Shown: positions 1 to 55,829, counted from the first letter of the stretch. The stretch is 64,000 bases of DNA from Promethearchaeota archaeon (GCA_048939015.1 JBHLPW010000006.1:1-64000); one strand, 5' to 3'. A program made the numbers and translations. Notes: generated from the sequence alone by a model not told the origin.

Positions 1-173
1 TTTAACACAAAAGTCACAAGAATATATTACACTATTTAGTCACAGTAAAAAATGGATTTCCATTATTTATTATATAAAAACATTTGGTTTCCTCACGGAT
101 TAAATATATACAATTCATAAAATGATTGTATTAAAATTAGTATTCATAAATAAGTTAATTAAAATGATTCTAT

Positions 174-434
174 ATGGAAACTGAAAAATTATATAAAACT
201 ATGCATGGGATTTTTCAACCAACAGAACAACCTCATTTCATAGATGTCTCAAAATTGCTTACTCCATTTACGAATATTGGTGGAATTGAGAGACAACCAC
301 TTATATATGATGGAATTGAAAAAATACCTTTTAATGAAAGACATCCCACGTATCAAGAAATCTTTGTTGACGAGTTTTTAACATATAGTAATATTCCACT
401 TGGAAATCATTTAAAAGAATTAGTTGTTCAATAA
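174..434 (+). CDS. Small hypothetical protein, paralog of 951..1178
   Basis: 86-aa ORF sharing an ungapped 45-aa block (VSxLxxPF...IYxGxEKIPFxE...QEIxxxEF) with ORF 951..1178. Confidence 0.6.
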   Translation: METEKLYKTMHGIFQPTEQPHFIDVSKLLTPFTNIGGIERQPLIYDGIEKIPFNERHPTYQEIFVDEFLTYSNIPLGNHLKELVVQ

Positions 435-533
435 ATTAAATATCAGTAGAGCAAAACATCTTCTCTTTCTTGAAAAAATCGCTCTCTTTTTATATGTTCA
501 TGAAGATAATCTATAAAAGAGACATAAATTGAA

Positions 534-845
534 TTGTTTGTAGATTCACAATCTATTGAAAAGAAGGTAGAAGAACTTTTAGACCATATTCTCAAACATG
601 GAAGTTCTTTTGATAGAAAGGAATTTCAACGAGGAAAGTTTTCTTTATTATCGAAGCTTGTAACAGAATTATTTAAAAGTAAAAATTCAAGAATTAGTTT
701 TAATAATATTTCAAGTTTAATAATTTTAATTTTAAACATTTGTAATGAGAAATTTGGATTGGATAATTATCCTCGTGGAGATAATAATTCTCTTAAAACT
801 TTCAATCCAAGATATAAGCATATTTTGAAAGATGAATTTCTATGA
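534..845 (+). CDS. Hypothetical protein
   Basis: 103-aa ORF with TTG start, co-oriented with neighbours; no recognised motif. Confidence 0.5.
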   Translation: MFVDSQSIEKKVEELLDHILKHGSSFDRKEFQRGKFSLLSKLVTELFKSKNSRISFNNISSLIILILNICNEKFGLDNYPRGDNNSLKTFNPRYKHILKDEFL

Positions 846-43130: not shown

Positions 43131-43415
43131 ATTGTTGTACCTAAATTTTGTTTAGATATGTATTGTTAATGTAAACCAATATATAACGATATATGTTTTC
43201 TTTTTATCAATACTCTTTGTGGATAAAAAAAATATAATATGATTCAATCATTTTGCAACATTTTTTTAAGATTTTCTTTTCGAAATCCACTAAAAAGTGT
43301 AAAAAAAAAGTAAAAAGAAAGAAATTTTGACACTAATGTTCGAATTTGATCGTTGACATCTTTAATTTATTTGTGTTTAATTTTAAAAATCAAAAACACT
43401 TTTAGATTTGATTAA

Positions 43416-43883
43416 CTACTCAGGAATAATAATCGAGTGATCTTCTTTTATTCGGTCTAAGACAATCTCTGTCTTGACTTCCTCAACTCCAGGAAGGTTG
43501 CGAAGTGTTTCTATAAGACCCATGGAGTCTGAATGATCTAGACATTTAGCCATTATGAACAAGGGATATTCTCCAGTGACCACATAAGCATACTTGATTT
43601 TTTCCATCTTTTCAATCTCGTTTTTAACATCCTCTAAGGGATTTGTTGCATTTACTCTCAGTGATGCCATTACCATTTCACGATATCCCAATTGGCGACA
43701 ATCAATCAACGCAACATACTTTTTAATCAATTCTTTCTCAAGTCGTTGAATACGTGCTCTTATCGCAGTAGCACTCTTATTAGTTTGGTGAGCAATTTCT
43801 CGGATAGTTATTTTTGCATCTTCCTGCAACAATTCGAGAATTTGTCTGTCTATATCATCTATAGTTCCATTTGTTATAACCAT
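43416..43883 (-). CDS. Lrp/AsnC family transcriptional regulator
   Basis: IDDIDRQILELLQEDAK..REIA HTH, RIQRLE, VTGEY RAM domain; divergent from the tus/hdr operon. Confidence 0.93.
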   Translation of the reverse strand: MVITNGTIDDIDRQILELLQEDAKITIREIAHQTNKSATAIRARIQRLEKELIKKYVALIDCRQLGYREMVMASLRVNATNPLEDVKNEIEKMEKIKYAYVVTGEYPLFIMAKCLDHSDSMGLIETLRNLPGVEEVKTEIVLDRIKEDHSIIIPE

Positions 43884-44025
43884 TAGAATAAACCTTTTTT
43901 TCCATATAGTAGCAATTTATAATTTATTAGTTTTTTATTAGTTTCTAACTCTCAAATAAAAAAGATTTTTCTTTACTTTTCTATAAGAATTACAAGCTTA
44001 TAATTTTTTTCACTACAATTTTATA

Positions 44026-44090
44026 TTTCTATAGTTTTGTTTGTTTAATAAATCATATGTTTATAGAAAAAAAAACTATAGTTTATATAT
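44026..44090. promoter_or_regulatory. Candidate operator palindromes next to a TATA box in the lrp/tusA divergent region
   Basis: Perfect palindrome AAACTATAGTTT (44073-44084) overlapping TTTATATA (44082-44089); related CTATAGTTTT at 44029-44038. Confidence 0.4.
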
Positions 44091-44178
44091 CACTTTGTAT
44101 TTTTTATCTATAACTGATATTGTTCATAATTAAATGAAATATCAAGTGAAAAAAAAATAAATAAAAAAACTAAAAAAA

Positions 44179-44412
44179 GTGAAAAAAATGGCTGTTAAAA
44201 CACTTGATTATACTGGATTGAAATGTCCGATGCCAGTGTTGAAAACTAAAAAGGAATTAAGAAGTTTGGTTTCTGGAGATGTAATAGAAGTTATCGCTGA
44301 TGATGTCGGCGCCAAAAAAGATATTCCAGCTCTTCTTAACAAGATTGGTGACGAATTAGTAGAGCTTCGAGAAGATAATGGAAATTTAACTTTTGTCATT
44401 AAAAAAGCGTAA
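44179..44412 (+). CDS. tusA: TusA-family sulfurtransferase
   Basis: LDYTGLKCPMP, ADD.GA..DI; likely start at 44188. Confidence 0.93.
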   Translation: MKKMAVKTLDYTGLKCPMPVLKTKKELRSLVSGDVIEVIADDVGAKKDIPALLNKIGDELVELREDNGNLTFVIKKA

Positions 44413-44429
44413 AATACGTTATACGGAGT

Positions 44430-44810
44430 ATGGATATTAATATGTCTAAATATGTTTTCTTTATTAGCACAGAGCCTTATAAATATCAAGCAGTAGATTC
44501 TCTGATAGAAATAGGTAAAGCTGCAATAAAAAAGGGGCATGAAATTACGGGTATATTTTTCTTTGGAACTGGTGTCTATAATCTTAAAAAGGATATTAGT
44601 TGCGGAAGTACTCTAAGAAACATTCCTGAAAAAATTGAGAAATTTTCTAAAGAGAATAATATTCGCGTTGCTGGATGTAGTACATGGGTAAGTATAACAG
44701 GGCTGAAAGAACCAGAATTCATTGAAGGAGCATCTGAAGAAGGTTTAGGGGACTTTTCAAATTGGGCGATTGGGGCTGATAAACTAATAGTATTTGGAGC
44801 AGGAGGTTAG
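44430..44810 (+). CDS. DsrE/TusD-like sulfur relay protein
   Basis: TEPY, GHEI..IFFF..GVYN, Cys in GCSTW, GLGDF. Confidence 0.85.
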   Translation: MDINMSKYVFFISTEPYKYQAVDSLIEIGKAAIKKGHEITGIFFFGTGVYNLKKDISCGSTLRNIPEKIEKFSKENNIRVAGCSTWVSITGLKEPEFIEGASEEGLGDFSNWAIGADKLIVFGAGG

Positions 44811-44815
44811 GTATT

Positions 44816-45184
44816 ATGGTAGAATCTGTGGTAATAATAAGTGATCAATCTCCTATTGGACGAAATTCTGCTGTTGAAGTTATTAGAATTGGTTCAGGAT
44901 TCACTGCACTTGGAGAATTCATTGATTGTAAAATTGTATTTATGGGGGATGCTGTGTATCTATTCAATAAAAATTGCGATCCTGAGGTGGTAGGAATGGA
45001 TTCTTTAGCAGAAGTATTAGAAATGGCTGATTTATCAGATTTAGAAGTAAATATTATTGAATCTGCTTTACAAGATGCGGGATTAACAAAAGAAGATATG
45101 ATTGACTATGAAAATTTGAAATTCATTGGATACGATGAACTAACAGATTTGATTGCTAATGCAGATGTGTCTTTTAGATATTAG
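44816..45184 (+). CDS. DsrF/TusC-like sulfur relay protein
   Basis: SP.G....E, FMGDAVY, C-terminal IANADVSFRY; position between DsrE and DsrH homologs. Confidence 0.8.
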   Translation: MVESVVIISDQSPIGRNSAVEVIRIGSGFTALGEFIDCKIVFMGDAVYLFNKNCDPEVVGMDSLAEVLEMADLSDLEVNIIESALQDAGLTKEDMIDYENLKFIGYDELTDLIANADVSFRY

Positions 45185-45200
45185 AGGAGGTTAGAAAAAG

Positions 45201-45542
45201 ATGTCAGAAAATCTTGATATGATATATTTGTTTGGATATAGCGGATTAACAGGAAGTCAATTAGAGAGATTATTACCTATTTTAAAAAGTCAAATTAAAA
45301 AGAACACAAAACTTGGATTAGTTTTAATTCATGATGGCGTTATCGGGATTACAACAAAGGGAAAGATGCCAAAAGAACTGGAAGAAATTCTCAGTTTAGA
45401 TGTTGAATTATTTGCTATGAAATCAGATATGAAAGCACGTGGTATTGCTCCTGAATATGTACATGACAAAATTAAAGCAATAGATTATGATGACCTTATA
45501 GATGTCATTGATACTACACCAAAAGTGATATCTTGGATGTAG
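45201..45542 (+). CDS. DsrH/TusB-like sulfur relay protein
   Basis: LIHDGV, DMKARG, IDYDDLID...VISW. Confidence 0.88.
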   Translation: MSENLDMIYLFGYSGLTGSQLERLLPILKSQIKKNTKLGLVLIHDGVIGITTKGKMPKELEEILSLDVELFAMKSDMKARGIAPEYVHDKIKAIDYDDLIDVIDTTPKVISWM

Positions 45543-45653
45543 GAGGACAAGAAAACAAAATTCAAAAAATTTTTTTGAAAAATCCTGGGTTAAACCAGAA
45601 AAATTAAACTATATATAACAAAAAAAAGGAAATTTCCAAAAAAAAACAAAAAA

Positions 45654-46088
45654 GTGGTAAATATGGCTGAAGATGCTGAAACAATAAACTTTATTGTAAA
45701 GGATAAGTCATTTGAGAAGTTTGCGATGATGGCTATCCTTGGTTCAACTGGTGACGCAATGGATATGAAAATGAATTTTTTCTTTACCTTTTGGGGTTTG
45801 AACTTATTAACCAAAAAGTTTAAACCTAAAGTTGCTGGAATGCCTACTCCTATGAAAGGTATGGGAGCAAAAATTTTCACAAAAAGGATGAAAAAGTTTG
45901 GAATTGAAGATCCATGGGCTTTAATTAAAGATGGTGTTGAAAACGGTAATTTAAAATTATATCCATGTCAAATGACAATGGATTTAATGGGTATTAAAGC
46001 TGAAGATATAATTGATTTCGCAGAACCACCGGTTGGAGCAGCTTCATTCTTAGAAATGAGCAATGGAGGCAGAATAGTCTCATTATAA
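45654..46088 (+). CDS. DsrE2 (DrsE_2)-family sulfurtransferase
   Basis: FFTFWGL, YPCQMTMDLMG, VGAASFL. Confidence 0.9.
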   Translation: MVNMAEDAETINFIVKDKSFEKFAMMAILGSTGDAMDMKMNFFFTFWGLNLLTKKFKPKVAGMPTPMKGMGAKIFTKRMKKFGIEDPWALIKDGVENGNLKLYPCQMTMDLMGIKAEDIIDFAEPPVGAASFLEMSNGGRIVSL

Positions 46089-46131
46089 ATTAAATTTTAA
46101 TAAATTTTTTTTTTATTTTTTAACAAAAAAA

Positions 46132-46698
46132 GTGATGATAATGTCTGATGTAAAAGAAGAACACCGTGAATTTAAAACGGATGATGATTTTGATCAAGAA
46201 TTTTTTAAAAGTATAGAGAGAAGATCAAATATCTGGCAGTGCATCCAATGTGGTACATGCACAGCGAGCTGTGAAAGTGGAAGATGGACTGCTTTAAAAA
46301 CTCGTTCAATTGTAAGAAAAGTGGTATTAGGAGACCTTTCAGTGCTAAGGGACCCTGATATTTGGTTATGTACAACATGTTATCAATGTTATGAGCGATG
46401 TCCACGTGATGTAAGACCTACTGATGTAATTATGGAGTTAAGAAATTACGCTACTAAATTAGGTAATATTTCTCCTAACCATAGAGCGGTTGTAGGTTAT
46501 TTAAAGAATTTTGGACATGCTGTACCAATTAATGATGAAGTAAGAAAAAGAAGAGTCGATTTAGGACTAGAAGAATTACCTCCTACTGCGTTTAAATTTA
46601 AGCAAGAGGGGGATGATAAAGATTTAAAGAATATTGAAGAATATATGTTTAATTTACCTCCAGTTAAGGAGGATAAAAAAGAAAAGGAGGAGGCATAA
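46132..46698 (+). CDS. hdrC: Heterodisulfide reductase subunit C
   Basis: CIQCGTCTASC, IWLCTTCYQCYERCPR, GHAVPIN, LGLEELPPT. Confidence 0.95.
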   Translation: MMIMSDVKEEHREFKTDDDFDQEFFKSIERRSNIWQCIQCGTCTASCESGRWTALKTRSIVRKVVLGDLSVLRDPDIWLCTTCYQCYERCPRDVRPTDVIMELRNYATKLGNISPNHRAVVGYLKNFGHAVPINDEVRKRRVDLGLEELPPTAFKFKQEGDDKDLKNIEEYMFNLPPVKEDKKEKEEA

Positions 46699-46700
46699 AA

Positions 46701-47618
46701 TTGGTTAAAGAAAACACATTTGCGTTCTTTTTAGGGTGTATAATGCCTAATCGATATCCTGCGATCGAGAAATCAACGAAATTTGTCATGGATAAATTAG
46801 GATATGAACTCTTAGATATGGAAAGAGCAACTTGTTGTCCTGCTCCAGGAGTTTTCCGTTCTTTCAATAAATTTGATTGGATGGTGGCAGCTGCAAGAAA
46901 TCTTTGTATTGCTGAAAAATTAGATGCTGATATTTTAACAGTTTGTAATGGCTGTTTTGGCACACTTCAAGAAGTAAATAAACACCTTAAAGAAAACGAA
47001 GAACATCGTGAAATGGTAAACGAAAAACTCAAATTACTGGGAGACTATGAATTTAAAGGAACGATTAATGTACGCCATGTAGCTGAAGTTTTGGGTTATG
47101 AAATTGGACCATGGGGAATTGAAGATCATATTGTTAGAAAATTAAATCTTAAAGCGGCGATTCATTATGGGTGTCATTTCTTAAAGCCTACCAGAATTAG
47201 GGAAATTGAAAGTTCTGAAGGTCCAACAATAATTGAAGATTTTATTGAAGTATTAGGAGTTGAATCGGTACGATTTAAAGAACAGCTTACATGCTGTGGT
47301 GCAGGTGGAGGGGTAAAAGCATATTCTGGTGATGCAAGTATGACAATTTTCGGTGAGAAAATGAAAAACATCGATGAAGTAAAACCAGATATAATCTTAG
47401 ATATCTGTCCATTTTGTCATTTACAATTTGAAACAGGCCAAGATTATTTAAATAAAAACAAAGGCTGTAATTATGATTATCCTGTAATTCATATCTCACA
47501 ACTCGTTGCCTATTGTATGGGAATGGATCAAGAATTTATTGGTCTTCAATATCAGTTAATGGGACAGGAGTTTATATTTGGAGGAGAAGAATTAAATAAA
47601 GAGGAGGAGGTTGCTTAA
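46701..47618 (+). CDS. hdrB: Heterodisulfide reductase subunit B
   Basis: FLGCIMPNRYP, TCCPAPG, CNGC, HYGCH, CCGAGGG, CPFCHLQ (two intact CCG domains). Confidence 0.96.
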   Translation: MVKENTFAFFLGCIMPNRYPAIEKSTKFVMDKLGYELLDMERATCCPAPGVFRSFNKFDWMVAAARNLCIAEKLDADILTVCNGCFGTLQEVNKHLKENEEHREMVNEKLKLLGDYEFKGTINVRHVAEVLGYEIGPWGIEDHIVRKLNLKAAIHYGCHFLKPTRIREIESSEGPTIIEDFIEVLGVESVRFKEQLTCCGAGGGVKAYSGDASMTIFGEKMKNIDEVKPDIILDICPFCHLQFETGQDYLNKNKGCNYDYPVIHISQLVAYCMGMDQEFIGLQYQLMGQEFIFGGEELNKEEEVA

Positions 47619-49646
47619 ATGACAGTAAAAGATGAAAAAGTAACCGATTCAAGTAATATTAGTGATAATGAAAAAGAAGAAGAACCTAAAATAGGCGTTT
47701 TTATATGTCATTGTGGTCATAATATCGCAGGGACAGTTGATGTGGCTAAAGTCGCAGATTATGCTAAAAATTTGCCTAATGTGGTTAAAGCGGAGCATTA
47801 TATGTTTATGTGTTCTAAACCAGGAGTTCAAATGCTCAAAGATTCTATTGAAGAATTAGGAGTTAATCGTAGTGTAGTAGCCAGTTGCTCGAAAAACCAA
47901 CATGGCAGAACTTTTGCTAAAGCAATTGAAGAGATGGGACTTAATAAGCACAGACATCAACAAGTAAATATTAGAGAATTTAATAGTTGGGTACATCAGA
48001 AAGAGAAAGATAAAGCAACCAATAAAGCAATGAAGTTAGTGGAAGCTGGAGTAAATAGGGCAAGGAAACTAGAGGATGTTGAAACTCGAAGAGTCCCAAC
48101 TACTAAAGCCGCGTTAGTTATTGGTGCTGGAATTGCTGGACTTCGTGCTTCTTATGATCTAGCCGAATTAGGGATACCAGTTTATTTAATTGAGAGACTT
48201 TCAACTATCGGAGGGCATATGACTCAATTAAATAAGACATTTCCAACACTTGAGTGTCCACAGTGTTCAATAAGTCCTTTGACTAATGGAGTTGCAAATC
48301 ACCCACTTGTTGAGCTTTATACAAACGCTCAGATAAAAAACGTACAAGGATCGATGGGTAATTTTGAAGTTGAGGTTGAAATAAAACCTCGATACGTTAA
48401 AGATAATTGTACATCTTGTGGTGAATGTGCTGCTCATTGTCCTGTGGAAGTCCCTAGTGAATGGGACAGTGGAATGTCAATGAGAAACGCAATTTATAAA
48501 GCTTATCCGCAAGCAATTCCCGCTACGTATGTGAGAGACAAGAAAAATTGTATTGAATGTAATACGTGTGTTAATGTTTGTCCCGTTCAGGCTGTAGATT
48601 TTTCAATGCAAGCAGAAACTAAAACTTTTAAAGTTGGTTCTATTGTTGTTGCTGCAGGTTATGATGAGTATGACCCATCAGAAATAGAACCATACCATTA
48701 TGGTCAAGAAGGATTTGAAGATGTTATAACTCAACTCAAATTAGAAAGGATGTTAGCTCCAGGTTCTCTTACTAACAGTCAAGTACTTCGTCCTTCTGAT
48801 GGTAAAATCCCCAAAAGTGTCGTAATGATACAATGTGTAGGAAGTAGAAATGATCAAGTAGGAAATCAATATTGTACAGGAGTTTGTTGTAAATTTGCAA
48901 TTAAGAATGCTCGAATTGTAAAAGAAATGTATCCAGATACAGATGTTACAATTTGCTATATTGATGTGAGAACTCCTGGTTTAAACTTTGAAGAATTATA
49001 TAAATCTGCACAAGAAGTGGGTGTAAGATTCATTAGAGGACGTCCATCAGAGATCCTAAGAGATCCTGTGTCTGGAGAATTAAAGGTAATTGTTGAAGAT
49101 ACATTAAGTCAAACTCCTTTAAAACTAAAAGCAGATATGGTAGTATTATCAGCAGCGATGGTACCTCCCGAAGGTATCGGTCCATTAGGATCAAAGTTAC
49201 AGGTTCTACGCTCAAAAGAAGGATTTTTAAAAGAATTCCATATTAAAATGAATCCGACTTTAAGCAGTAAAGGAGGAATATTTTTAGCGGGAGCAATTCA
49301 AGGTCCTAAAGATATTTCTGAAAGTGTTGCTCAAGCAGGTAATGCTGCAGCTATAGCTGCTGCTCCATTAGTTAAGGGCTATATTGAAAAGGAAATGTTA
49401 ATTCCTTCAGTAGATTTTGAATTATGCGTAAGATGTAGTTTATGTAAAACTGTATGTGCTCCAGCAGCGATAGAAATAAATGATGATGGAACGCCTATGA
49501 TTAATGAAGTTGCTTGTAAATCATGTGGTATGTGCATGCCTGTATGTCCTACGGGAGCAATTCAATTATTAAATTTTAGTGATGATCAATTGTTAGATGA
49601 AATAATCGCAATATCAGGAGGAGGTGCTGTATGCGAAAATGAGTGA
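47619..49646 (+). CDS. hdrA: Heterodisulfide reductase subunit A
   Basis: ICHCG.NI, GAGIAG, KTFPTLEC..C, inserted ferredoxin, LERM, QCVGSR, C..CC..AIK, GPKDI, C-terminal ferredoxin. Confidence 0.96.
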   Translation: MTVKDEKVTDSSNISDNEKEEEPKIGVFICHCGHNIAGTVDVAKVADYAKNLPNVVKAEHYMFMCSKPGVQMLKDSIEELGVNRSVVASCSKNQHGRTFAKAIEEMGLNKHRHQQVNIREFNSWVHQKEKDKATNKAMKLVEAGVNRARKLEDVETRRVPTTKAALVIGAGIAGLRASYDLAELGIPVYLIERLSTIGGHMTQLNKTFPTLECPQCSISPLTNGVANHPLVELYTNAQIKNVQGSMGNFEVEVEIKPRYVKDNCTSCGECAAHCPVEVPSEWDSGMSMRNAIYKAYPQAIPATYVRDKKNCIECNTCVNVCPVQAVDFSMQAETKTFKVGSIVVAAGYDEYDPSEIEPYHYGQEGFEDVITQLKLERMLAPGSLTNSQVLRPSDGKIPKSVVMIQCVGSRNDQVGNQYCTGVCCKFAIKNARIVKEMYPDTDVTICYIDVRTPGLNFEELYKSAQEVGVRFIRGRPSEILRDPVSGELKVIVEDTLSQTPLKLKADMVVLSAAMVPPEGIGPLGSKLQVLRSKEGFLKEFHIKMNPTLSSKGGIFLAGAIQGPKDISESVAQAGNAAAIAAAPLVKGYIEKEMLIPSVDFELCVRCSLCKTVCAPAAIEINDDGTPMINEVACKSCGMCMPVCPTGAIQLLNFSDDQLLDEIIAISGGGAVCENE

Positions 49647-50091
49647 ATGTGAATATATTGAACCAGAAGTACTTGAAAAGATGGAAAATATTGTAGTTTT
49701 TATGTGTAATGAATGTGGACAAGGTTCAGCAAACACAGCAGGAGTGGCTCGAATGGCATATAATCCAGCAATTCGAATAGTTCGAGTCCAATGTACAGGT
49801 CAAGTTGGTCCTATTCAGATTATGGATGCTTTAAGTAACGGAGCGGATTCTGTTGCGTGTGTTGGTTGTTGTTTAGGAGCTTGTCATTTCTTTAATGGCA
49901 ATATTTTATCCATGCATAGAATAAAATTAATGAAAAAGTTATTTAAGGAGTTAGGTTATAGTGATCAGTTTGTTAATCAATATACTTCGAGAGCTGCTGA
50001 AGGAGAAACGGCAGTCGGAGATTTTGAAGATATTGTGGAGCGATTAGCAACTGCAATTAGAGAGGAGGGGACTTTCAAAGATGGATGTTAG
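49624..50091 (+). CDS. mvhD: MvhD-family [2Fe-2S] protein
   Basis: CNEC, RIVRVQCTG, GAD, GC..G.CHF.NGN; likely start at 49639. Confidence 0.9.
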   Translation: MLYAKMSECEYIEPEVLEKMENIVVFMCNECGQGSANTAGVARMAYNPAIRIVRVQCTGQVGPIQIMDALSNGADSVACVGCCLGACHFFNGNILSMHRIKLMKKLFKELGYSDQFVNQYTSRAAEGETAVGDFEDIVERLATAIREEGTFKDGC

Positions 50092-51322
50092 AGTATTTCA
50101 GTTTAATGGATGTAATAAATGCTTTAATGAGACGATACTTTTAAAAGGAGAATCCAAATATAAAGTAGAATTTATACAAGATCCTCAAAACTGGAAAGAA
50201 CAAAAGACTGAGGTATCAATTATCACTGGATTTTTACTACCAGAGAATAAAGAAATTTTAAATAAGATTAAAGCAAATTCAGAAAAAGTAATTGCATATG
50301 GAAATTGTACTACAACAGGAGGGATTTTTGCTCTTGCTAATCAAAAAAGTCATGATGTAACTCCATTAAAAAACATAATCGAAGATTCAATTAATATTAA
50401 TGGATGTTTAGGGGAAATTGAGGAATTAAAGCTAGAGATTGAAGATAATGATCTCCCAAAATTAAAGAATCTATGTATAGTATGTGGAAGACGGAAAACA
50501 TGTGATTACTTAGACGATGTAAAACGTCAAATTGAATTAGGAGATACTGAGACATGTTTTAATGATCTTGGGTATCTTTGTAATGGTTTTATATCAAAAG
50601 AATGCAAAGAACGATGTATTGATTATAATGCCCCATGTAGAGGTTGTAAACCAATTATAGAACGTTCTGGAATCAGAATGTTAGGAATGTTTGGAACTCT
50701 TATGGGAAATATTGAAGTAGCGACTGAACACTCTGAAAAGGGAGCAACTGATAAATTAGCAGATAGGGATGATGATATAACGGAAAGATTGCCAGATATA
50801 GTAGGAAATTTCTTTAGATTTACTTTACCAACATCAGGATTACCAAAAGGCAGAATTCCTTCAAATGGTAATATTTTAGATGACGTTTTTACTGGAAGAC
50901 TTATTGAAGAATTACCTTTGATTTCAGGATTATTAGGAGGAGATCATTCAATCTCACTAACATTAAAAATAATTGAAACTTACGAGGAAGCAAATGAAAT
51001 TGAAGTAAGCGAAAAAACAAAAAATTATCGAAGTCAATTGCTAAAATTGGAAGATCAACTCCAAAAGGCGATTCAAAGTAAAGATCTGGAAGAATATAAG
51101 AAAATTACTGAAGAAATTCGTAAAATTGCGGGAAATATGAATTTATCTAATTTAACTTATGGAGGATTCAGGTCTCAAATTGATGATAATGATGATTTTG
51201 AAGAATATAAAGCCCACGTTTTTGAAGTGGTCGAAGGAACATATAAAAATGGTTCTGTTGAATTTACAATTGATCCAGTTGGCATTGTAAAACAAATTAA
51301 AATTAAAGAGGGATATGCATGA
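50081..51322 (+). CDS. MvhG-like Fe-S subunit fused to a degenerate [NiFe]-hydrogenase large-subunit remnant
   Basis: GCNKC, AYGNC..GG, NGC, CIVC, CF..GYLC.G...C..C...PCRGC; C-terminal ~150 aa resembles MvhA segments but has no Cys. Confidence 0.75.
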   Translation: MDVRVFQFNGCNKCFNETILLKGESKYKVEFIQDPQNWKEQKTEVSIITGFLLPENKEILNKIKANSEKVIAYGNCTTTGGIFALANQKSHDVTPLKNIIEDSININGCLGEIEELKLEIEDNDLPKLKNLCIVCGRRKTCDYLDDVKRQIELGDTETCFNDLGYLCNGFISKECKERCIDYNAPCRGCKPIIERSGIRMLGMFGTLMGNIEVATEHSEKGATDKLADRDDDITERLPDIVGNFFRFTLPTSGLPKGRIPSNGNILDDVFTGRLIEELPLISGLLGGDHSISLTLKIIETYEEANEIEVSEKTKNYRSQLLKLEDQLQKAIQSKDLEEYKKITEEIRKIAGNMNLSNLTYGGFRSQIDDNDDFEEYKAHVFEVVEGTYKNGSVEFTIDPVGIVKQIKIKEGYA

Positions 51323-53787
51323 GTTTTGAATTATTAAGAGAAGAAATAGTGGATGCTGGTCTTTGTCAAGGATGTGGTTTATGTGCTGGTTCATGTAAAC
51401 ATATTGAAATGGATCTAAGGCGTCCAACTTTAAAAGATTATTGTATATTGGAAAGAGATGGAAAAGATTGTGGCAAATGCTATCAAAATTGTCCTCAAGT
51501 AATCCAGAAAAAATTTAAAGAAAAGCAGCCTCTTGCGATTTACTCATTAAGAAGTAAAGACCCAGCTATTTTGAATAAAGCTTCAAGTGGAGGCTTTGTA
51601 ACTACTTTTGCTAAAGAATTGTTGGAGAATGAATCTCTTAAAGAAATAGTAATGGTTCAAGAAGAAGACGAGAAACCTACAGCTGAAATAGTTTCTGATC
51701 CTAATGACGTAGTTCAAAAGGCTGGGGTTATTTATGGTAGGTCTGGAGTACTGCAGAAATTAGTAGAACTTACCGGTGAAACATTTGAGCCGATTGGCAT
51801 AGTTGGTGTACCCTGTGAAATGCGTGGTGCTGCTGAACTTGAAGAAGATATGAATCGAGAAATTTTAAAAATTGGATTGTTTTGTAGTTCCCAAATGAGA
51901 ACTGAACAAACAGACAAGGGTTTAGTATGTTCTCCATGTTGTAATGGTTGTCCCTCTGGGGTCAATGCTCAAGGATATATATCATTGATACGTCAAGGAA
52001 AGTATCAAGATGCTGTTGATTTAATTAGAGAAAGTAATCCCCTTCCGTCTATATGTGGAAGAATTTGTACAAATGAGTGCGAGCATGGTTGTACTCTAAT
52101 TGGAGACGACCATCCTGTCGCGATTCGTGAATTAAAGAAATTTGTTACTGAATGGGAAATTGAAAGAGCTAAAAACACTTCAAAACAAAAAGCTAAATTA
52201 CCCAAAAATGCTAAAAAAGTAGCAATTATAGGATCTGGACCAGCAGGATTAACAGCGGCATATTATTTAAGGAGAATGGGTTATGCACCAACAATTTTTG
52301 AGAAGACAGATCAAACAGGAGGAATGCTAAGATTTGGTGTACCGCAGTTTCGATTACCTAATTATGTATTAGATTATGATGTAGGTAGGATCGTAGATTC
52401 TGGAGTTAAGGTTGTACTTAATAAGCCTTTAGGGCCTGAAATGTCTATTGATGATTTAAAGAATGATGGATTTGAAGCCATATTTATTGCAACTGGACAA
52501 TATAAACCCCGTACCTTACACTTAGAAGGAGAAGATTTACCAAATGTGCATGTAGCAATTCATTTTCTTATGGATAGAAAGTATCGATACTGGGAAAATA
52601 AAGAAGAATTTAAAGGCAAAACTTTAGGAATAATCGGAGGTGGACCAGTCGCAGTTGATGTTGCACAAACAGCTCTTAGATTAGGTGCAGATAAAGTTCA
52701 CCTTGTAGATATAATGTCAAAAGAACAACTCGAATTAGTACTACGAGAAATACCTGAAAATGAAATGGAATTTATGGAATATCACTTTACGACCTCAACT
52801 TCTAAAATCACTCAGAATAAAGATATAAAATTAGTTCTAAATTCTTATAAGATTGAATGGGGTAAACCTGATAAAAGTGGGAGGAAACCATTAATTAAAA
52901 TTGAAGAATCCGATTATCAGATACCAGTAGATTCCATTGTAATTGCAGTTGGTCAAGCAGTAGATTTTGAACAAATAGATGCTGCTACCAATAATATATT
53001 GGAAAAAGAACGAAATAGAATCAAAGTAAACGAGGTTACATTTGAAACAAATATACCTGGTGTTTTTGCTGGTGGAGATATAATCAGTAATTCTAAGGCT
53101 GTAGCCATTGCTGCTATAGCTCATGGAAAAGAAGCGGCAATTTCAATAGACAGATACTTAAAGGGAGAGAACTTAATGGAAGGAAGATACAAGATAAAGA
53201 ATTCCTTTTTCACTGGACCTAAAAAACCTCCAAAAGACTATTCCTTGAAACCAGATACTTTAGAAGAAGCAACTGAAGAAATTAATTGGAGTTTTGAGGA
53301 AATTGATCAAATGTTCAATGAAGATATGGCTTTACAGGAGGCTAGAAGATGTCTAAGTTGTAATCACTTCTGTTCTCATTGTCAAGATTTCCCTGCAATA
53401 TATTCAGATCTGACAGCGGGTGAAGTAGGATCACAAGAAGGCTATACTACAGTGGTAGTTTGGACAGAAAGAGGAAAAAATTTTGTTGAAGAAGCGATTA
53501 AAAAGGGATTATTCGAACAAGGAAAAGTCGATGATGAAGCATTGAAAAATGCTATAAATCTAAAATCAAAACGTGAATTGATGAATTTTGAAAAAACCCC
53601 AAGACAACAAGTATTAAACTATGTATCACTTCAAGGACCTAGTACTATTACAGATATCGTAAACCGAACAGGTCTTGAACCTAAAAAAGCAAGATATGAA
53701 GCGCTCCGATTAGTTCAATTAATGCAATTAGAGATGAAAGCTGAACCTGATATGGAGGAGCCAATATTTTCTATTATATGTGATTAA
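51319..53787 (+). CDS. FrhB-like protein with inserted GltD/NfnB-type NAD(P)H oxidoreductase and C-terminal wHTH
   Basis: 2x[4Fe-4S]; FrhB motifs SSGGFVT, VGVPC, IGLFC; GltD motifs CP, NPLP.ICGRIC, IIGSGPAG, GGMLRFG, VFAGGD, EARRCLSC; FrhB resumes at CSHCQDF..DLTAG.VGS..GYTTV. Confidence 0.85.
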   Translation: MSFELLREEIVDAGLCQGCGLCAGSCKHIEMDLRRPTLKDYCILERDGKDCGKCYQNCPQVIQKKFKEKQPLAIYSLRSKDPAILNKASSGGFVTTFAKELLENESLKEIVMVQEEDEKPTAEIVSDPNDVVQKAGVIYGRSGVLQKLVELTGETFEPIGIVGVPCEMRGAAELEEDMNREILKIGLFCSSQMRTEQTDKGLVCSPCCNGCPSGVNAQGYISLIRQGKYQDAVDLIRESNPLPSICGRICTNECEHGCTLIGDDHPVAIRELKKFVTEWEIERAKNTSKQKAKLPKNAKKVAIIGSGPAGLTAAYYLRRMGYAPTIFEKTDQTGGMLRFGVPQFRLPNYVLDYDVGRIVDSGVKVVLNKPLGPEMSIDDLKNDGFEAIFIATGQYKPRTLHLEGEDLPNVHVAIHFLMDRKYRYWENKEEFKGKTLGIIGGGPVAVDVAQTALRLGADKVHLVDIMSKEQLELVLREIPENEMEFMEYHFTTSTSKITQNKDIKLVLNSYKIEWGKPDKSGRKPLIKIEESDYQIPVDSIVIAVGQAVDFEQIDAATNNILEKERNRIKVNEVTFETNIPGVFAGGDIISNSKAVAIAAIAHGKEAAISIDRYLKGENLMEGRYKIKNSFFTGPKKPPKDYSLKPDTLEEATEEINWSFEEIDQMFNEDMALQEARRCLSCNHFCSHCQDFPAIYSDLTAGEVGSQEGYTTVVVWTERGKNFVEEAIKKGLFEQGKVDDEALKNAINLKSKRELMNFEKTPRQQVLNYVSLQGPSTITDIVNRTGLEPKKARYEALRLVQLMQLEMKAEPDMEEPIFSIICD

Positions 53788-53826
53788 ATAATAAATAAAT
53801 TTAATAAATACCAAGAGGTAAAGATA

Positions 53827-54066
53827 ATGAAATACGATATGGAATTAAACGTCTGCGGGTTAGTATGTCCTGTCCCAGCTTTAAAAACTAAAAAACAGCT
53901 CATGAAAATGAGACCTGGCACAGTTTTAAAAGTTATAACAGACTATAAACCTGCTAGTGAATCTGTTCCCCGTGATTTAGCAAAACAAACTAAGCATAAA
54001 CACTTAGGAACGGAATTTCTCGAAGACGATGAACAATGGTATATCTATTTTGAAGCTGTAAAATAA
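53827..54066 (+). CDS. tusA: Second TusA-family sulfurtransferase
   Basis: LNVCGLVCPVP, LKVITDY. Confidence 0.9.
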   Translation: MKYDMELNVCGLVCPVPALKTKKQLMKMRPGTVLKVITDYKPASESVPRDLAKQTKHKHLGTEFLEDDEQWYIYFEAVK

Positions 54067-54073
54067 CTAGATA

Positions 54074-54108
54074 CTTCTTTTTTTATTCTTTTTTTTTTAG
54101 TTTTATTT
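54074..54108 (+). terminator. Oligo-T archaeal terminator candidate after the tus/hdr operon
   Basis: Long T tracts immediately after the last tusA stop codon. Confidence 0.45.
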
Positions 54109-54231
54109 GATTAGTAGGTCGAATCTAAAATTTATCCAAGAGTCCATTTATAGTTCTAGATTGTAAACTATAAATGAATTGCATTCTGATTATAATTTAA
54201 TAAAATTACTAAACAAAACATATAAAGAAAT

Positions 54232-54984
54232 ATGCAGGAAGTAGAAAATATATATCAAGATGCTTATTACAGAACAAAAAACTTCAAAGGGTTATTCATT
54301 CACGATATTTCAAATTTATTTCAGATAATCAGCAATTCTATTGAGTTTTGTGAATCAATGTTAAAAAATGAAGTAAAAACAGATGAAATTTTAGAGTTTT
54401 TTTATATGATTGCGAAACAGATAGACCGTGGTAAGAAATTGATTAGAAATGTTAGAAATCTTTCAGAAATGGAAGAATATGAAATGCCTTTAGTACCTGT
54501 TGAAATATTTTCTACTTTGGAGAATGTTTTTAGTTTTACTTATGCAAGTTTTCCTAAAAAGGAAATTGAAATTAATATGTACCCTAATCATGGAAACCTT
54601 TATATTATGGCAAATGAGCTACTGAGTGAAGTATTTGAAAATATAATTATAAATTCTATTTATTACAACAGAAATAGAGTTGTTAAAATTGAAGTTGTAG
54701 CTTCTATCATTGAAATTCATCATAAGAATTATGTAAAGATCGAGTTTAAGGATAATGGTATTGGTATCGATAATAATCGAAAACAGGTGATATTTCAAGA
54801 AACTCATCTAAAGAACAAGCAATCTAATGGTATGGGAATTGGTCTATCATTGGTTGCTAGAGTAATTGAATTATACGGTGGAGAAATTAGGGTAAAAGAT
54901 CATATAGAGGGAGATTCCACGAAAGGGAGCAATTTCATAATCTTGATTCCATTAATTAAAAAAAAAAAAGAAGGTAATGTGTAA
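54232..54984 (+). CDS. Histidine kinase lacking a sensor domain
   Basis: IHDISN H-box about 24 aa from the start, ENIIINS, DNGIGI, GMGIGLSLV; paralog of the 20972 kinase core. Confidence 0.9.
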   Translation: MQEVENIYQDAYYRTKNFKGLFIHDISNLFQIISNSIEFCESMLKNEVKTDEILEFFYMIAKQIDRGKKLIRNVRNLSEMEEYEMPLVPVEIFSTLENVFSFTYASFPKKEIEINMYPNHGNLYIMANELLSEVFENIIINSIYYNRNRVVKIEVVASIIEIHHKNYVKIEFKDNGIGIDNNRKQVIFQETHLKNKQSNGMGIGLSLVARVIELYGGEIRVKDHIEGDSTKGSNFIILIPLIKKKKEGNV

Positions 54985-55829
54985 TGACAATTAGTTATCA
55001 AAATACAAAACCACTAAAATTGAAGAAAAATATTAAATGGTATACTTATGTAGATTCTTCTCTTGACTTAAAACTAAAAGTCTTTATGGAAGAATATCGC
55101 TTGAATAACCAAGCGAGAATTATAAGAGATTTTGTAAATCATTGCATTGATTATTTCGAAGCAATGTTTAAGAAGAAATCTTATAATGATCCTCAGGTCT
55201 ATGATGAGAAAGAACTTGATAATTTAATAAAAAAAGCAATTACAACATATGAAAATGGTAATAATTTTCATGGAGAATTAAAGCAAAAACTTTCACCGCT
55301 TAAATTATCACTGTTAATGCTTAATAACTATATCGAAGAAAAAAATATGCTCAAAGAGGGCATTCAAAATGCAATAGACGCCTTAAACGAGTTAGAGATT
55401 TCTGTAAAACGACATTTTGAGGAACCTAGTATTGTAAGGTTTATAAAAAAAATAGATCTCTTATATGTTGAAGACAATGAATTGGAACGGAAAACCATAG
55501 AGCATTTTTTTAGAGCAAATGAAGTAAATATTAAATCCGTAGAAACTTCTGACGAGGCTTTATACATTCTTAAGAGCTTAACTCCTAAAGTCATATTACT
55601 TGATATTAATTTAAAGACTAGTAATATAAATGGAGATCGCCTTTGCCAGATGTTAAAATCAAGTTCTCAGTACAATTCAATTCCAATAGTATTAATATCA
55701 GCTGTTTTCTTCAATAATACCAAAGAACAAATTTTAACTGAAACAGGAGCCGATGAAGTCATTTTTAAACCTATTGACAGATTAAAAGATTTAAACGTTC
55801 TATTTAAATACTTTAAAGAAAAATATTGA
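54984..55829 (+). CDS. Response regulator with N-terminal RHH-like domain (paralog of 22239..23066)
   Basis: KWYTYVDS.LD.KLK, ELKQKLSPLK, YVEDN, LLDINL, FKPI. Confidence 0.85.
   Translation: MTISYQNTKPLKLKKNIKWYTYVDSSLDLKLKVFMEEYRLNNQARIIRDFVNHCIDYFEAMFKKKSYNDPQVYDEKELDNLIKKAITTYENGNNFHGELKQKLSPLKLSLLMLNNYIEEKNMLKEGIQNAIDALNELEISVKRHFEEPSIVRFIKKIDLLYVEDNELERKTIEHFFRANEVNIKSVETSDEALYILKSLTPKVILLDINLKTSNINGDRLCQMLKSSSQYNSIPIVLISAVFFNNTKEQILTETGADEVIFKPIDRLKDLNVLFKYFKEKY

Follow-up and report, generated by a model that had tools for sequence, protein, structure and literature searches.

In the Elp-Hdr complex, ElpB/FdhB oxidises the reduced form of cofactor F420 (F420H2) and feeds the bifurcating flavin adenine dinucleotide (FAD) of HdrA via clusters and MvhD/ElpC, by which the Mvh hydrogenase is replaced (PMC12350162). 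In NfnABC, a module equivalent to the one described below transfers hydride from reduced nicotinamide adenine dinucleotide phosphate (NADPH) to FAD, from which electrons pass through clusters A7 and A6, and acts as a non-bifurcating input (PMC11829005, PMC12018979). N-terminal ferredoxin domains have been described in Fsr and in the zeta subunits of Ethanoperedens (PMC10229431, PMC11493965), and the cluster-1 motif of Fsr, PCX40CX54CX2C, is of the FrhB type (PMC10229431). Here we present a gene from a 64,000-nucleotide stretch of the genome of a Promethearchaeota archaeon (Lokiarchaeial; GCA_048939015.1 JBHLPW010000006.1:1-64000), the whole stretch being referred to as the window. The gene encodes an 822-residue protein in which a flavoprotein module lies nested inside an FrhB-type domain. 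The protein is probably an Elp-like dual-input arm, using F420H2 and reduced nicotinamide adenine dinucleotide (NADH), which would serve as donor or acceptor for a hydrogenase-less HdrABC-MvhD-(MvhG-like) complex encoded in a sulfur-relay operon, as judged from sequence comparisons and predicted models. The gene and its parts are the following.

51319..53787, + strand: whole gene, ferredoxin-FrhB::GltD-winged-helix protein of 822 residues (open reading frame listing)
51319..51513, + strand: N-terminal ferredoxin domain, residues 1-65 (Cys positions; alignment to Fsr 7np8 and to 8rja/8riu)
51541..51885, + strand: FrhB-type domain, first part, residues 75-189, with FrhB_N and the start of FrhB_C (Pfam, PDB sequence alignments)
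51931..53370, + strand: inserted GltD module of NfnA/StnC type, residues 205-684 (Pfam, NCBIfam, phmmer, VIA)
52636..52716, + strand: second dinucleotide-binding motif within the insert, residues 440-466, GGGPVAVD...KVHLVDIM (alignment A1, motif census, paralog comparison)
53281..53370, + strand: C-terminal segment of the insert, residues 655-684, with E674, R677, C678 and C681 (Fer4_20 profile match)
53371..53592, + strand: FrhB-type domain, second part, residues 685-758, with C685 and C688 (CSHCQDF) and SDLTAGEVGS (Pfam, alignments to 8rja_E, 8riu_B and 3zfs_C, VIA to residue 758)
53596..53784, + strand: acidic tail predicted to be a winged helix, residues 760-822 (structure models, Foldseek, VIA)

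An earlier interpretation, made by a model from the DNA alone (the sequence-only reading), had given exactly the same coordinates for the open reading frame, and the motifs quoted there are all present: IGLFC at 185-189, CSHCQDF at 685-691, GGGPVAVD at 440-447, HLVDIM at 461-466 and the tail starting from PRQQV at 761. Its placement of the insert at 51928-53363, corresponding to residues 204-682, agrees with the 205-684 estimated here. It had also proposed a nested FrhB::GltD architecture, which was borne out by the Pfam map, by the family alignment and by the single FrhB fold in the predicted model. The Pfam search was performed with the whole protein, and domains were counted if they scored above the gathering cut-offs. 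FrhB_FdhB_N was found at 75-145 (48.0 bits, cut-off 22), Fer4_20 at 190-283 (81.3 bits) and Pyr_redox_2 at 299-603 (103.6 bits), while FrhB_FdhB_C appeared in two stretches, the best of them at 667-739, covering profile positions 79-149 with 68.9 bits (cut-off 23.3). The ferredoxin domain at the N-terminus holds eight Cys (16, 19, 22, 26, 42, 51, 54, 58) in a pattern for two predicted [4Fe-4S] clusters, and in the alignment residues 1-65 correspond to the ferredoxin domains at the N-termini of Fsr (7np8) and of the Ethanoperedens zeta subunits (8rja/8riu). Together with the FrhB-type flavin domain and its single [4Fe-4S] cluster, this domain makes up a unit of the FpoF/Fsr/zeta type.

The ligands of the FrhB cluster read PC166-X22-C189-X495-C685-X2-C688, with C166 located in VPCEMRG and C189 in IGLFC, and all four are invariant in the family alignment (A2). 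Given this order and spacing, the flavoprotein module sits between the second and the third Cys ligand of one and the same FrhB cluster. Such nesting is not a chance alignment, because the architecture is common to more than 118 full-length homologs of 817-825 residues. The AlphaFold2 model built from 48 sequences has a mean predicted local distance difference test (pLDDT) score of 81.9 and a predicted template modelling score of 0.69, and was used for an exhaustive VIA structure search. There, 8riu_E (Z 28.6, 278 residues aligned, model 1..758), 8rja_K (Z 27.7, outside the insert) and Fsr 7np8_A (Z 24.3) each matched in a single superposition, and FrhB 9r51_B matched over model residues 65..758 (Z 25.1, root-mean-square deviation (rmsd) 2.5, 211 of 282 residues aligned). 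In the predicted model both FrhB halves thus form one body with one fold, an assembly on which the sequence-only reading had made its proposal depend.

In regard to the inserted module, it is composed of a Fer4_20 part, an FAD fold (GSGPAG at 305-310), an NAD(P)H fold and a permuted EAxRCLxC segment. The NCBIfam model PRK12771 covers residues 195-688, yet the NCBIfam cut-offs are not reached by the insert, which scores 397.3 bits with PRK12771 (cut-off 516) and 302.4 bits with gltA TIGR01316 (cut-off 471.75). Sequence comparison by phmmer links the insert to 9n5u_A (4e-94), and the structure search links it to 9n5v_A, the NfnA of T. sibiricus NfnABC (Z 40.0, rmsd 2.8, 441 aligned, model 191..686), and to StnC 8oh5_C (Z 38.8). 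Matches beyond the protein's own family are confined to residues ~200-690 and end at E674..R677-C678..C681, four residues that are invariant in alignment A1. The order of the parts is what distinguishes the type. The start of the insert matches Fer4_20 profile positions 13-111, and residues 655-684, taken alone, match positions 4-35 of the same profile (E 3e-5). In canonical paralogs of the same genome the two Fer4_20 segments are contiguous (L004 reads ESIRCLQCGNPQCVLGCP, and L005 is similar), and NfnA and StnC have the same permuted order as the insert. By its sequence the insert is therefore of a circularly permuted NfnA/StnC type relative to GltD, NfnB and DPD, with its two ends meeting. 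As to the GltD/NfnB/SudA-like module announced by the sequence-only reading, the complete flavoprotein module stands, and the canonical GltD type gives way to the permuted one.

Easy insertion of the permuted module into a loop would follow from its two ends meeting at a shared cluster. For the two [4Fe-4S] clusters predicted in the insert, C207, C211, C250, C254, C258, C678 and C681 are invariant or nearly so in alignment A1, and an eighth Cys, C246, is present in the query. C681, the last Cys of the insert, stands four residues before the FrhB ligand C685, and one cluster of the insert should consequently adjoin the FrhB cluster within electron-transfer distance, an argument drawn only from this four-residue spacing.

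Which nucleotide would be used by the insert is a question for its second dinucleotide motif. The query reads GGGPVAVD...KVHLVDIMSKEQLELV where NADPH-type relatives read GGGNxAxD...V(Y)RRS..(M/L)PA. The NADPH-type motif after beta-2 of the second fold (YRR...MPA) is absent in the query, which has VHLVDIMSKEQLELV, and D464 stands where NADPH-type members have YRR. The altered motif had been pointed out by the sequence-only reading, and the present comparison confirms it across the clade, as GGG[PAS]VA[VI]D...[VI]HLV[DE]I is kept in about 118 full-length homologs according to the motif census, including the acidic residue with which beta-2 ends (VHLVD). An acidic residue at this position is the classical NAD determinant in two-dinucleotide-binding flavoproteins. 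Within the same genome, the paralog with the most similar module (L002, 55% identical) shows the same change with VDLVDIL, while L004 and L005 keep YRR. A preference of the insert for NADH is a fair inference from these motifs. Alternatively, the insert could use NADPH or both nucleotides, or could have lost nucleotide binding and act as an extra flavin/Fe-S (iron-sulfur) relay. This alternative, which we regard as somewhat unlikely, draws on the closest solved relatives, all of which use NADPH (9n5u_A has YRR at this motif), on P0122, the most distant full-length homolog (44-46% identical), in which YRR is kept, and on the fact that one motif cannot give specificity with certainty; another distant homolog, P0121 (56% identical), has VEIR there. 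It is opposed by the intact GGGxxAxD, by the clear conservation of [VI]HLV[DE]I, by the acidic residue itself and by the parallel change in L002.

The second substrate proposed, F420H2, concerns the FrhB part. Among FrhB-type proteins, the best sequence matches are the zeta subunits of 8riu/8rja (E 1e-26), and SGGFVTT, VPCE, LFC, CxHCxDF and D..aG..GS are conserved, A2 containing invariant columns among them. The named equivalogs are not reached, neither FrhB TIGR03289 (66 bits, cut-off 331.5) nor FpoF NF040616 (76.6 bits, cut-off 475). The stretch between the second and the third Cys measures 17 residues in relatives devoid of the insert, and the classical FrhB segment of ~54 residues is missing throughout the subfamily. 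This absence is the first argument for another explanation, in which the FrhB part no longer handles F420, being a flavin/Fe-S scaffold or acting on another substrate as in HCAR, and the protein is an input for NAD(P)H only. FrhB-family members with partners other than F420 do exist, and the ferredoxin-dependent HCAR 5dqr is among the matches (Z 21.0). We nevertheless find this explanation rather improbable, since the best matches by sequence and structure are demonstrated F420 oxidoreductases (8rja/8riu, Fsr, FrhB), the motifs listed above are conserved, and the natural forms with a deleted flavoprotein core, described below, would be left without any substrate site. Biosynthesis of F420 is encoded as well: CofG was found in the genome with 377.6 bits against a cut-off of 213, from which F420 is judged to be available to the cell.

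The gene belongs to an operon whose other members, with a neighbouring regulator, are the following.

43416-43883, - strand: Lrp/AsnC-family regulator, divergent from the operon
44179..46088, + strand: sulfur-relay genes at the operon head, TusA, DsrE, DsrE, DsrH and DrsE_2 (Pfam)
46132-46698, + strand: HdrC (Pfam; TIGR03290 174.3 bits, cut-off 160)
46701-47618, + strand: HdrB (Pfam; TIGR03288 373.9 bits, cut-off 345)
47619-49646, + strand: HdrA (Pfam; HdrA2 model 740 bits, below its cut-off)
49624-50091, + strand: MvhD (Pfam)
50081..51322, + strand: candidate upstream partner, MvhG-like Fe-S protein of 413 residues (Pfam Oxidored_q6; phmmer)
53827..54066, + strand: second TusA gene, directly downstream (Pfam TusA 64.1 bits)

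The nested gene stands directly after HdrC-HdrB-HdrA-MvhD-MvhG-like, in a row of overlapping or abutting frames, with 4 bases of overlap between its ATG and the stop of the preceding MvhG-like gene in the open reading frame listing. The order TusA-DsrE-DsrE-DsrH-DrsE_2-HdrC-HdrB-HdrA-MvhD-MvhG-like-[nested FrhB gene]-TusA is identical in all three loci holding the whole operon (G273, G237, G065), where the nested gene is present as a long form 73% identical to the query in G237, as a long form 52% identical in G273, and as a short form in G065, accompanied by HdrA and MvhD that are 92% and 98% identical, respectively. The second TusA also follows the gene in the relatives G288, G273, G065 and G237, and an upstream TusA is present in G237 and G065 but went undetected in the G273 stretch. 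Such a position, preserved in distant relatives, lends support to the role of a putative electron-input module, as the sequence-only reading had suggested. The flanking TusA/DsrE/DsrH genes suggest that the Hdr substrate could be a carrier- or protein-bound sulfur species.

Residues 93-256 of the MvhG-like protein match MvhG 5odc_E and 9sw2_E by phmmer, and its last ~160 residues gave no Pfam match, with none to NiFeSe_Hases even at E<=10. A hydrogenase large subunit was not found in the operon, and the only match to a NiFe large subunit in the genome is on contig C95. A scan of 43300-54400 for sigma-70 promoters and terminators returned 51 and 3 hits, respectively, compared to 50.4 and 4.2 in shuffled sequences, with a consensus that is unsuited to archaea. 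Directly downstream of the operon (window 54232-55829) there are genes for a protein with a histidine-kinase-like ATPase domain and for a response-regulator receiver protein. As a separate observation on HdrA, the genome harbours at least 12 HdrA-like loci, four of which (L024-L027, on contigs C76, C21, C70 and C32) read through 2-4 in-frame TGA codons and are selenocysteine candidates; the HdrA of the window has no in-frame TGA codons.

The distribution of the long form is narrow. The 120 best matches listed from a collection of 5.8 billion proteins are 72-92% identical to the query and nearly all full-length (817-825 residues), and they carry Lokiarchaeota/Promethearchaeota and other Asgard labels as source names. 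Among 1.84 billion representatives at 50% identity, P0121 and P0122 were the only further full-length clusters. Exactly one ortholog was found in 57 of 121 species genomes of the window's order; ~48 of these orthologs have an open frame of 809-839 residues, 3 have 367-384 residues, 5 are cut by contig ends and 1 has 528 residues. The long form is single-copy and nearly confined to one Lokiarchaeial order. A long form with 83% identity is also present in a genome of a different family, f24 (G295:C137:2056-4533), with no comparable match in other f24 genomes, and it may result from contamination of the bin (listed at 9%) or from lateral transfer.

Outside the insert, the short forms (~380 residues; 366-399 among the sequences of the protein collection) share 68-72% identity with the query. 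They could be taken for the ancestral state, but this possibility was rejected, as they keep relics of the insert, RCGCTL(I/L)G..HPV.I.ELK and (E/D)GK.C.(S/T)C, with exactly four Cys kept in the linker of 20 of the 20 short forms examined, and are nested inside the long clade. The latter was observed in a tree calculated from the FrhB core and tail after deletion of the insert columns, which took the forms with the 17-residue linker as root and was obtained by a quick method with Shimodaira-Hasegawa-like approximate likelihood ratio test support only; there, long forms are basal and at least two changes are needed for the short label. The sequences read as a history in which one insertion took place in an ancestor with ferredoxin, FrhB and winged-helix parts, and the flavoprotein core was later deleted in some lineages, leaving the four-Cys relic. 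An essential role for the insert was also considered and is not supported, given these natural core-deleted orthologs in the same operon slot. Because they keep that slot, the NAD(P)H site would be an addition to a function for which the FrhB part suffices.

The remaining part of the protein is the tail, for which the sequence-only reading had proposed a winged helix that possibly binds DNA. The fold holds as a prediction. Folded alone from a 31-row alignment, the tail reaches a pLDDT of 90.7 with the order H-(E)-H-H-hairpin (H1 761-772, H2 777-784, H3 788-800, beta-hairpin 804-819), Foldseek aligns it with MarR, Z-alpha and AspA domains (template modelling score 0.72-0.77, rmsd 1.2-2.1), and winged-helix domains make up all of the 50 best VIA matches (Z 8.7-10.4). 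The same tail is found in relatives of 343-355 residues that never had the insert; it is therefore an old feature of the FrhB subfamily which predates the insert. A link between tail and insert, considered as another possibility, is not supported in view of these relatives.

If the tail bound DNA, the enzyme could also sense redox state and control the transcription of its own operon. The best matches of the predicted winged helix are indeed regulators of the MarR/ArsR type, some source annotations append 'predicted transcriptional regulator', and helix 3 contains K790, K791, R793 and R797. The tail as a whole, on the other hand, is acidic (net charge -2, isoelectric point (pI) 5.0, with the wing AEPDMEEP), the family mostly has a pI of 4.5-5.7, and the insert-free relatives, in the same pI range, have PDDIIYHLLVLQ in helix 3. 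Pfam gave no helix-turn-helix family at E<=10 for the whole protein or for the tail alone, the only match being DUF7646 (E 0.17), and the VIA matches include winged helices that do not bind DNA, e.g. those of ESCRT-II and SelB. Moreover, the Lrp/AsnC regulator encoded divergently beside the operon is the likelier binder of the intergenic region 43884-44178. DNA binding by the tail is hence unsupported and unlikely, and the dual role as a regulator of the operon is very improbable.

Taken as a dual-input arm, the protein could operate in the following manner. Hydride from F420H2 would enter at the FrhB flavin, and hydride from NADH, rather than NADPH, at the inserted FAD, which would be connected to the FrhB cluster through the two clusters of the insert. 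Both electron streams would merge at the FrhB cluster and exit via the N-terminal ferredoxin clusters towards the MvhG-like protein and MvhD, and ultimately reach the bifurcating FAD of HdrA, in parallel to ElpB in Elp-Hdr. Electrons could also travel in the opposite direction. The NAD(P)H module would be an optional accessory, and the acidic winged-helix tail may be an element for protein docking or dimerisation and not a DNA binder.

It is also conceivable that the protein acts on its own as an F420H2:NAD(P)+ oxidoreductase, a transhydrogenase that links the pools of F420 and of pyridine nucleotides via its internal Fe-S chain and is co-regulated with Hdr without feeding it. Two hydride-transfer flavin sites joined by clusters in one chain would suit such an enzyme, F420 and NAD(P) have similar midpoint potentials, and the protein L004, with FrhB and GltD parts in tandem, stands in no Hdr context within the locus inspected. 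However, the ferredoxin domain with two [4Fe-4S] clusters, which carries electrons out of the protein in Fsr, FpoF and the zeta subunits, would be superfluous for an internal transhydrogenase, the coupling of the gene with its MvhG-like neighbour is tight, and the core-deleted orthologs keep the operon position, which argues for a conserved function independent of the NAD(P)H site. A transhydrogenase of this kind is accordingly considered quite unlikely.

For the dual-input arm itself, several points have to be set on the opposite side of the balance. We infer the identity of the cofactors, the direction of flow and the formation of a complex alike, and the preference for NADH has its sole basis in the general Rossmann rule. 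All NCBIfam equivalog cut-offs are missed by the 822-residue protein, and the F420 pocket may differ, given the missing segment of ~54 residues. In the AlphaFold2 model the linkers 191-204 and 634-656, and only these, are poorly predicted. Finally, the gene is missing at E<=1e-40 in about half of the searched genomes of the order, and it is therefore not a core function.

Hdr-based bifurcation is central to anaerobic energy conservation, and the donor modules Mvh, Fdh and Elp define the substrates that can be used. To these, the nested protein would add an arm whose single chain takes hydride from two carriers. It would do so in the archaeal lineage nearest to eukaryotes, whose many Hdr paralogs have a role that is still unexplained. 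The core-deleted orthologs, found in an otherwise identical operon, represent a natural control for the contribution of the NAD(P)H module. The ends of the module meeting at a shared cluster would offer a structural reason for nesting in several unrelated hosts, which could be useful for annotation and for the engineering of redox chains.

Related to this, two kinds of further proteins were observed. One is L002 (G000 contig C21, L002:979-3741), a protein of 921 residues composed of an HdrC-like 4Fe-4S dicluster domain, a permuted GltD module and two CCG (HdrB-like) domains; open reading frames of this type, 919-937 residues long and 54-58% identical, occur in about 30 related genomes. The other comprises open frames of 1637-1665 residues in the genera g1, g4 and g6 (G121:C13, G204:C17, G141:C7 and others), whose GltD module is ~40% identical to the insert. 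The presence of L002 and L004 in the genome studied is in keeping with a portable module. A wider proposal, which we put forward as a tentative possibility, would hold that F420H2 and NADH both deliver hydride to one polypeptide, in which the two inputs join a single Fe-S wire that drives a flavin-based bifurcating HdrABC, that the thiol substrate is a protein-bound persulfide or polysulfide of the TusA/DsrE/DsrH relay and not CoM-S-S-CoB (the disulfide of coenzymes M and B), and that different hosts of the Hdr system (FrhB, the HdrC/HdrB-like fusion, ANME-1 HdrA, bacterial BfuA) gain and lose the permuted flavoprotein of NfnA type as a portable plug-in cassette. If true, this would amount to an undescribed energy-coupling system of Lokiarchaeia.

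In the literature we found no description of FrhB as a host for such a module or of an Asgard TusA/DsrE-Hdr operon, with a coverage that is incomplete and not a proof of novelty. Among described systems, the FrhB part most closely resembles the CODH/Fwd zeta subunits of Candidatus Ethanoperedens (8riu, 8rja; PMC11493965), its best FrhB-type matches by both sequence and fold (Z 27.7-28.6), and the N-terminal half of Fsr (7np8). In these proteins a ferredoxin domain with two [4Fe-4S] clusters is likewise followed by an F420 oxidoreductase domain with a [4Fe-4S] cluster and FAD, and then by a C-terminal extension. They differ in having no inserted flavoprotein, with ~54 residues between the second and the third Cys as opposed to 495 in the present protein and 17 in Asgard forms free of the insert, and their C-terminal extension is not a winged helix. 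ElpB/FdhB of Elp-Hdr and Fdh-Hdr (8rvu, 7bkc; PMC12350162) is a structural match as well (8rvu_E, Z 22.2), and the encoding of HdrABC and an MvhD-type connector together with an FrhB-family subunit is shared with those complexes. However, ElpB has neither the NAD(P)H module nor the winged helix, and the scaffold there is of the FdhA/ElpA type, ElpA being a truncated FdhA, whereas the 413-residue MvhG-like protein is found in its place here.

As regards the module, an entire NfnB-like flavoprotein nested in a protein of the Hdr system is known from the HdrA of anaerobic methanotrophic archaea (ANME-1), where a role in delivering NAD(P)H electrons to an Hdr complex has been proposed for it (PMC9012536); the likeness is one of description, and the host there is HdrA and not FrhB, in ANME-1 and not in Asgard archaea. 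In the genome studied, L004 (G000:C111, L004:58-2784, 909 residues, ~35% identical) also unites a ferredoxin domain with the FrhB and GltD families in one chain, but end to end and not nested, with the canonical Fer4_20 order and the canonical NADPH-type motif VVYRRSESEMPA, and the own-genome search gave no match in it to the tail of the query. The closest counterpart of the insert is NfnA/StnC of NfnABC (Bfu-type) and StnABC (9n5u/9n5v, 9bov, 8oh5), which has the same permuted order with PCxxxCP first and EAxRCLxC last, and likewise holds FAD and two [4Fe-4S] clusters, predicted in our case, at 33-37% identity and Z 38.8-40.0. In NfnA/StnC the module serves as a non-bifurcating hydride input embedded in a larger Fe-S protein, as it would here, yet its place there is after a [2Fe-2S] domain of a BfuA/FdhA-like subunit, with NADPH as its nucleotide (VYRRS), while here it lies inside FrhB and carries VHLVDIM.

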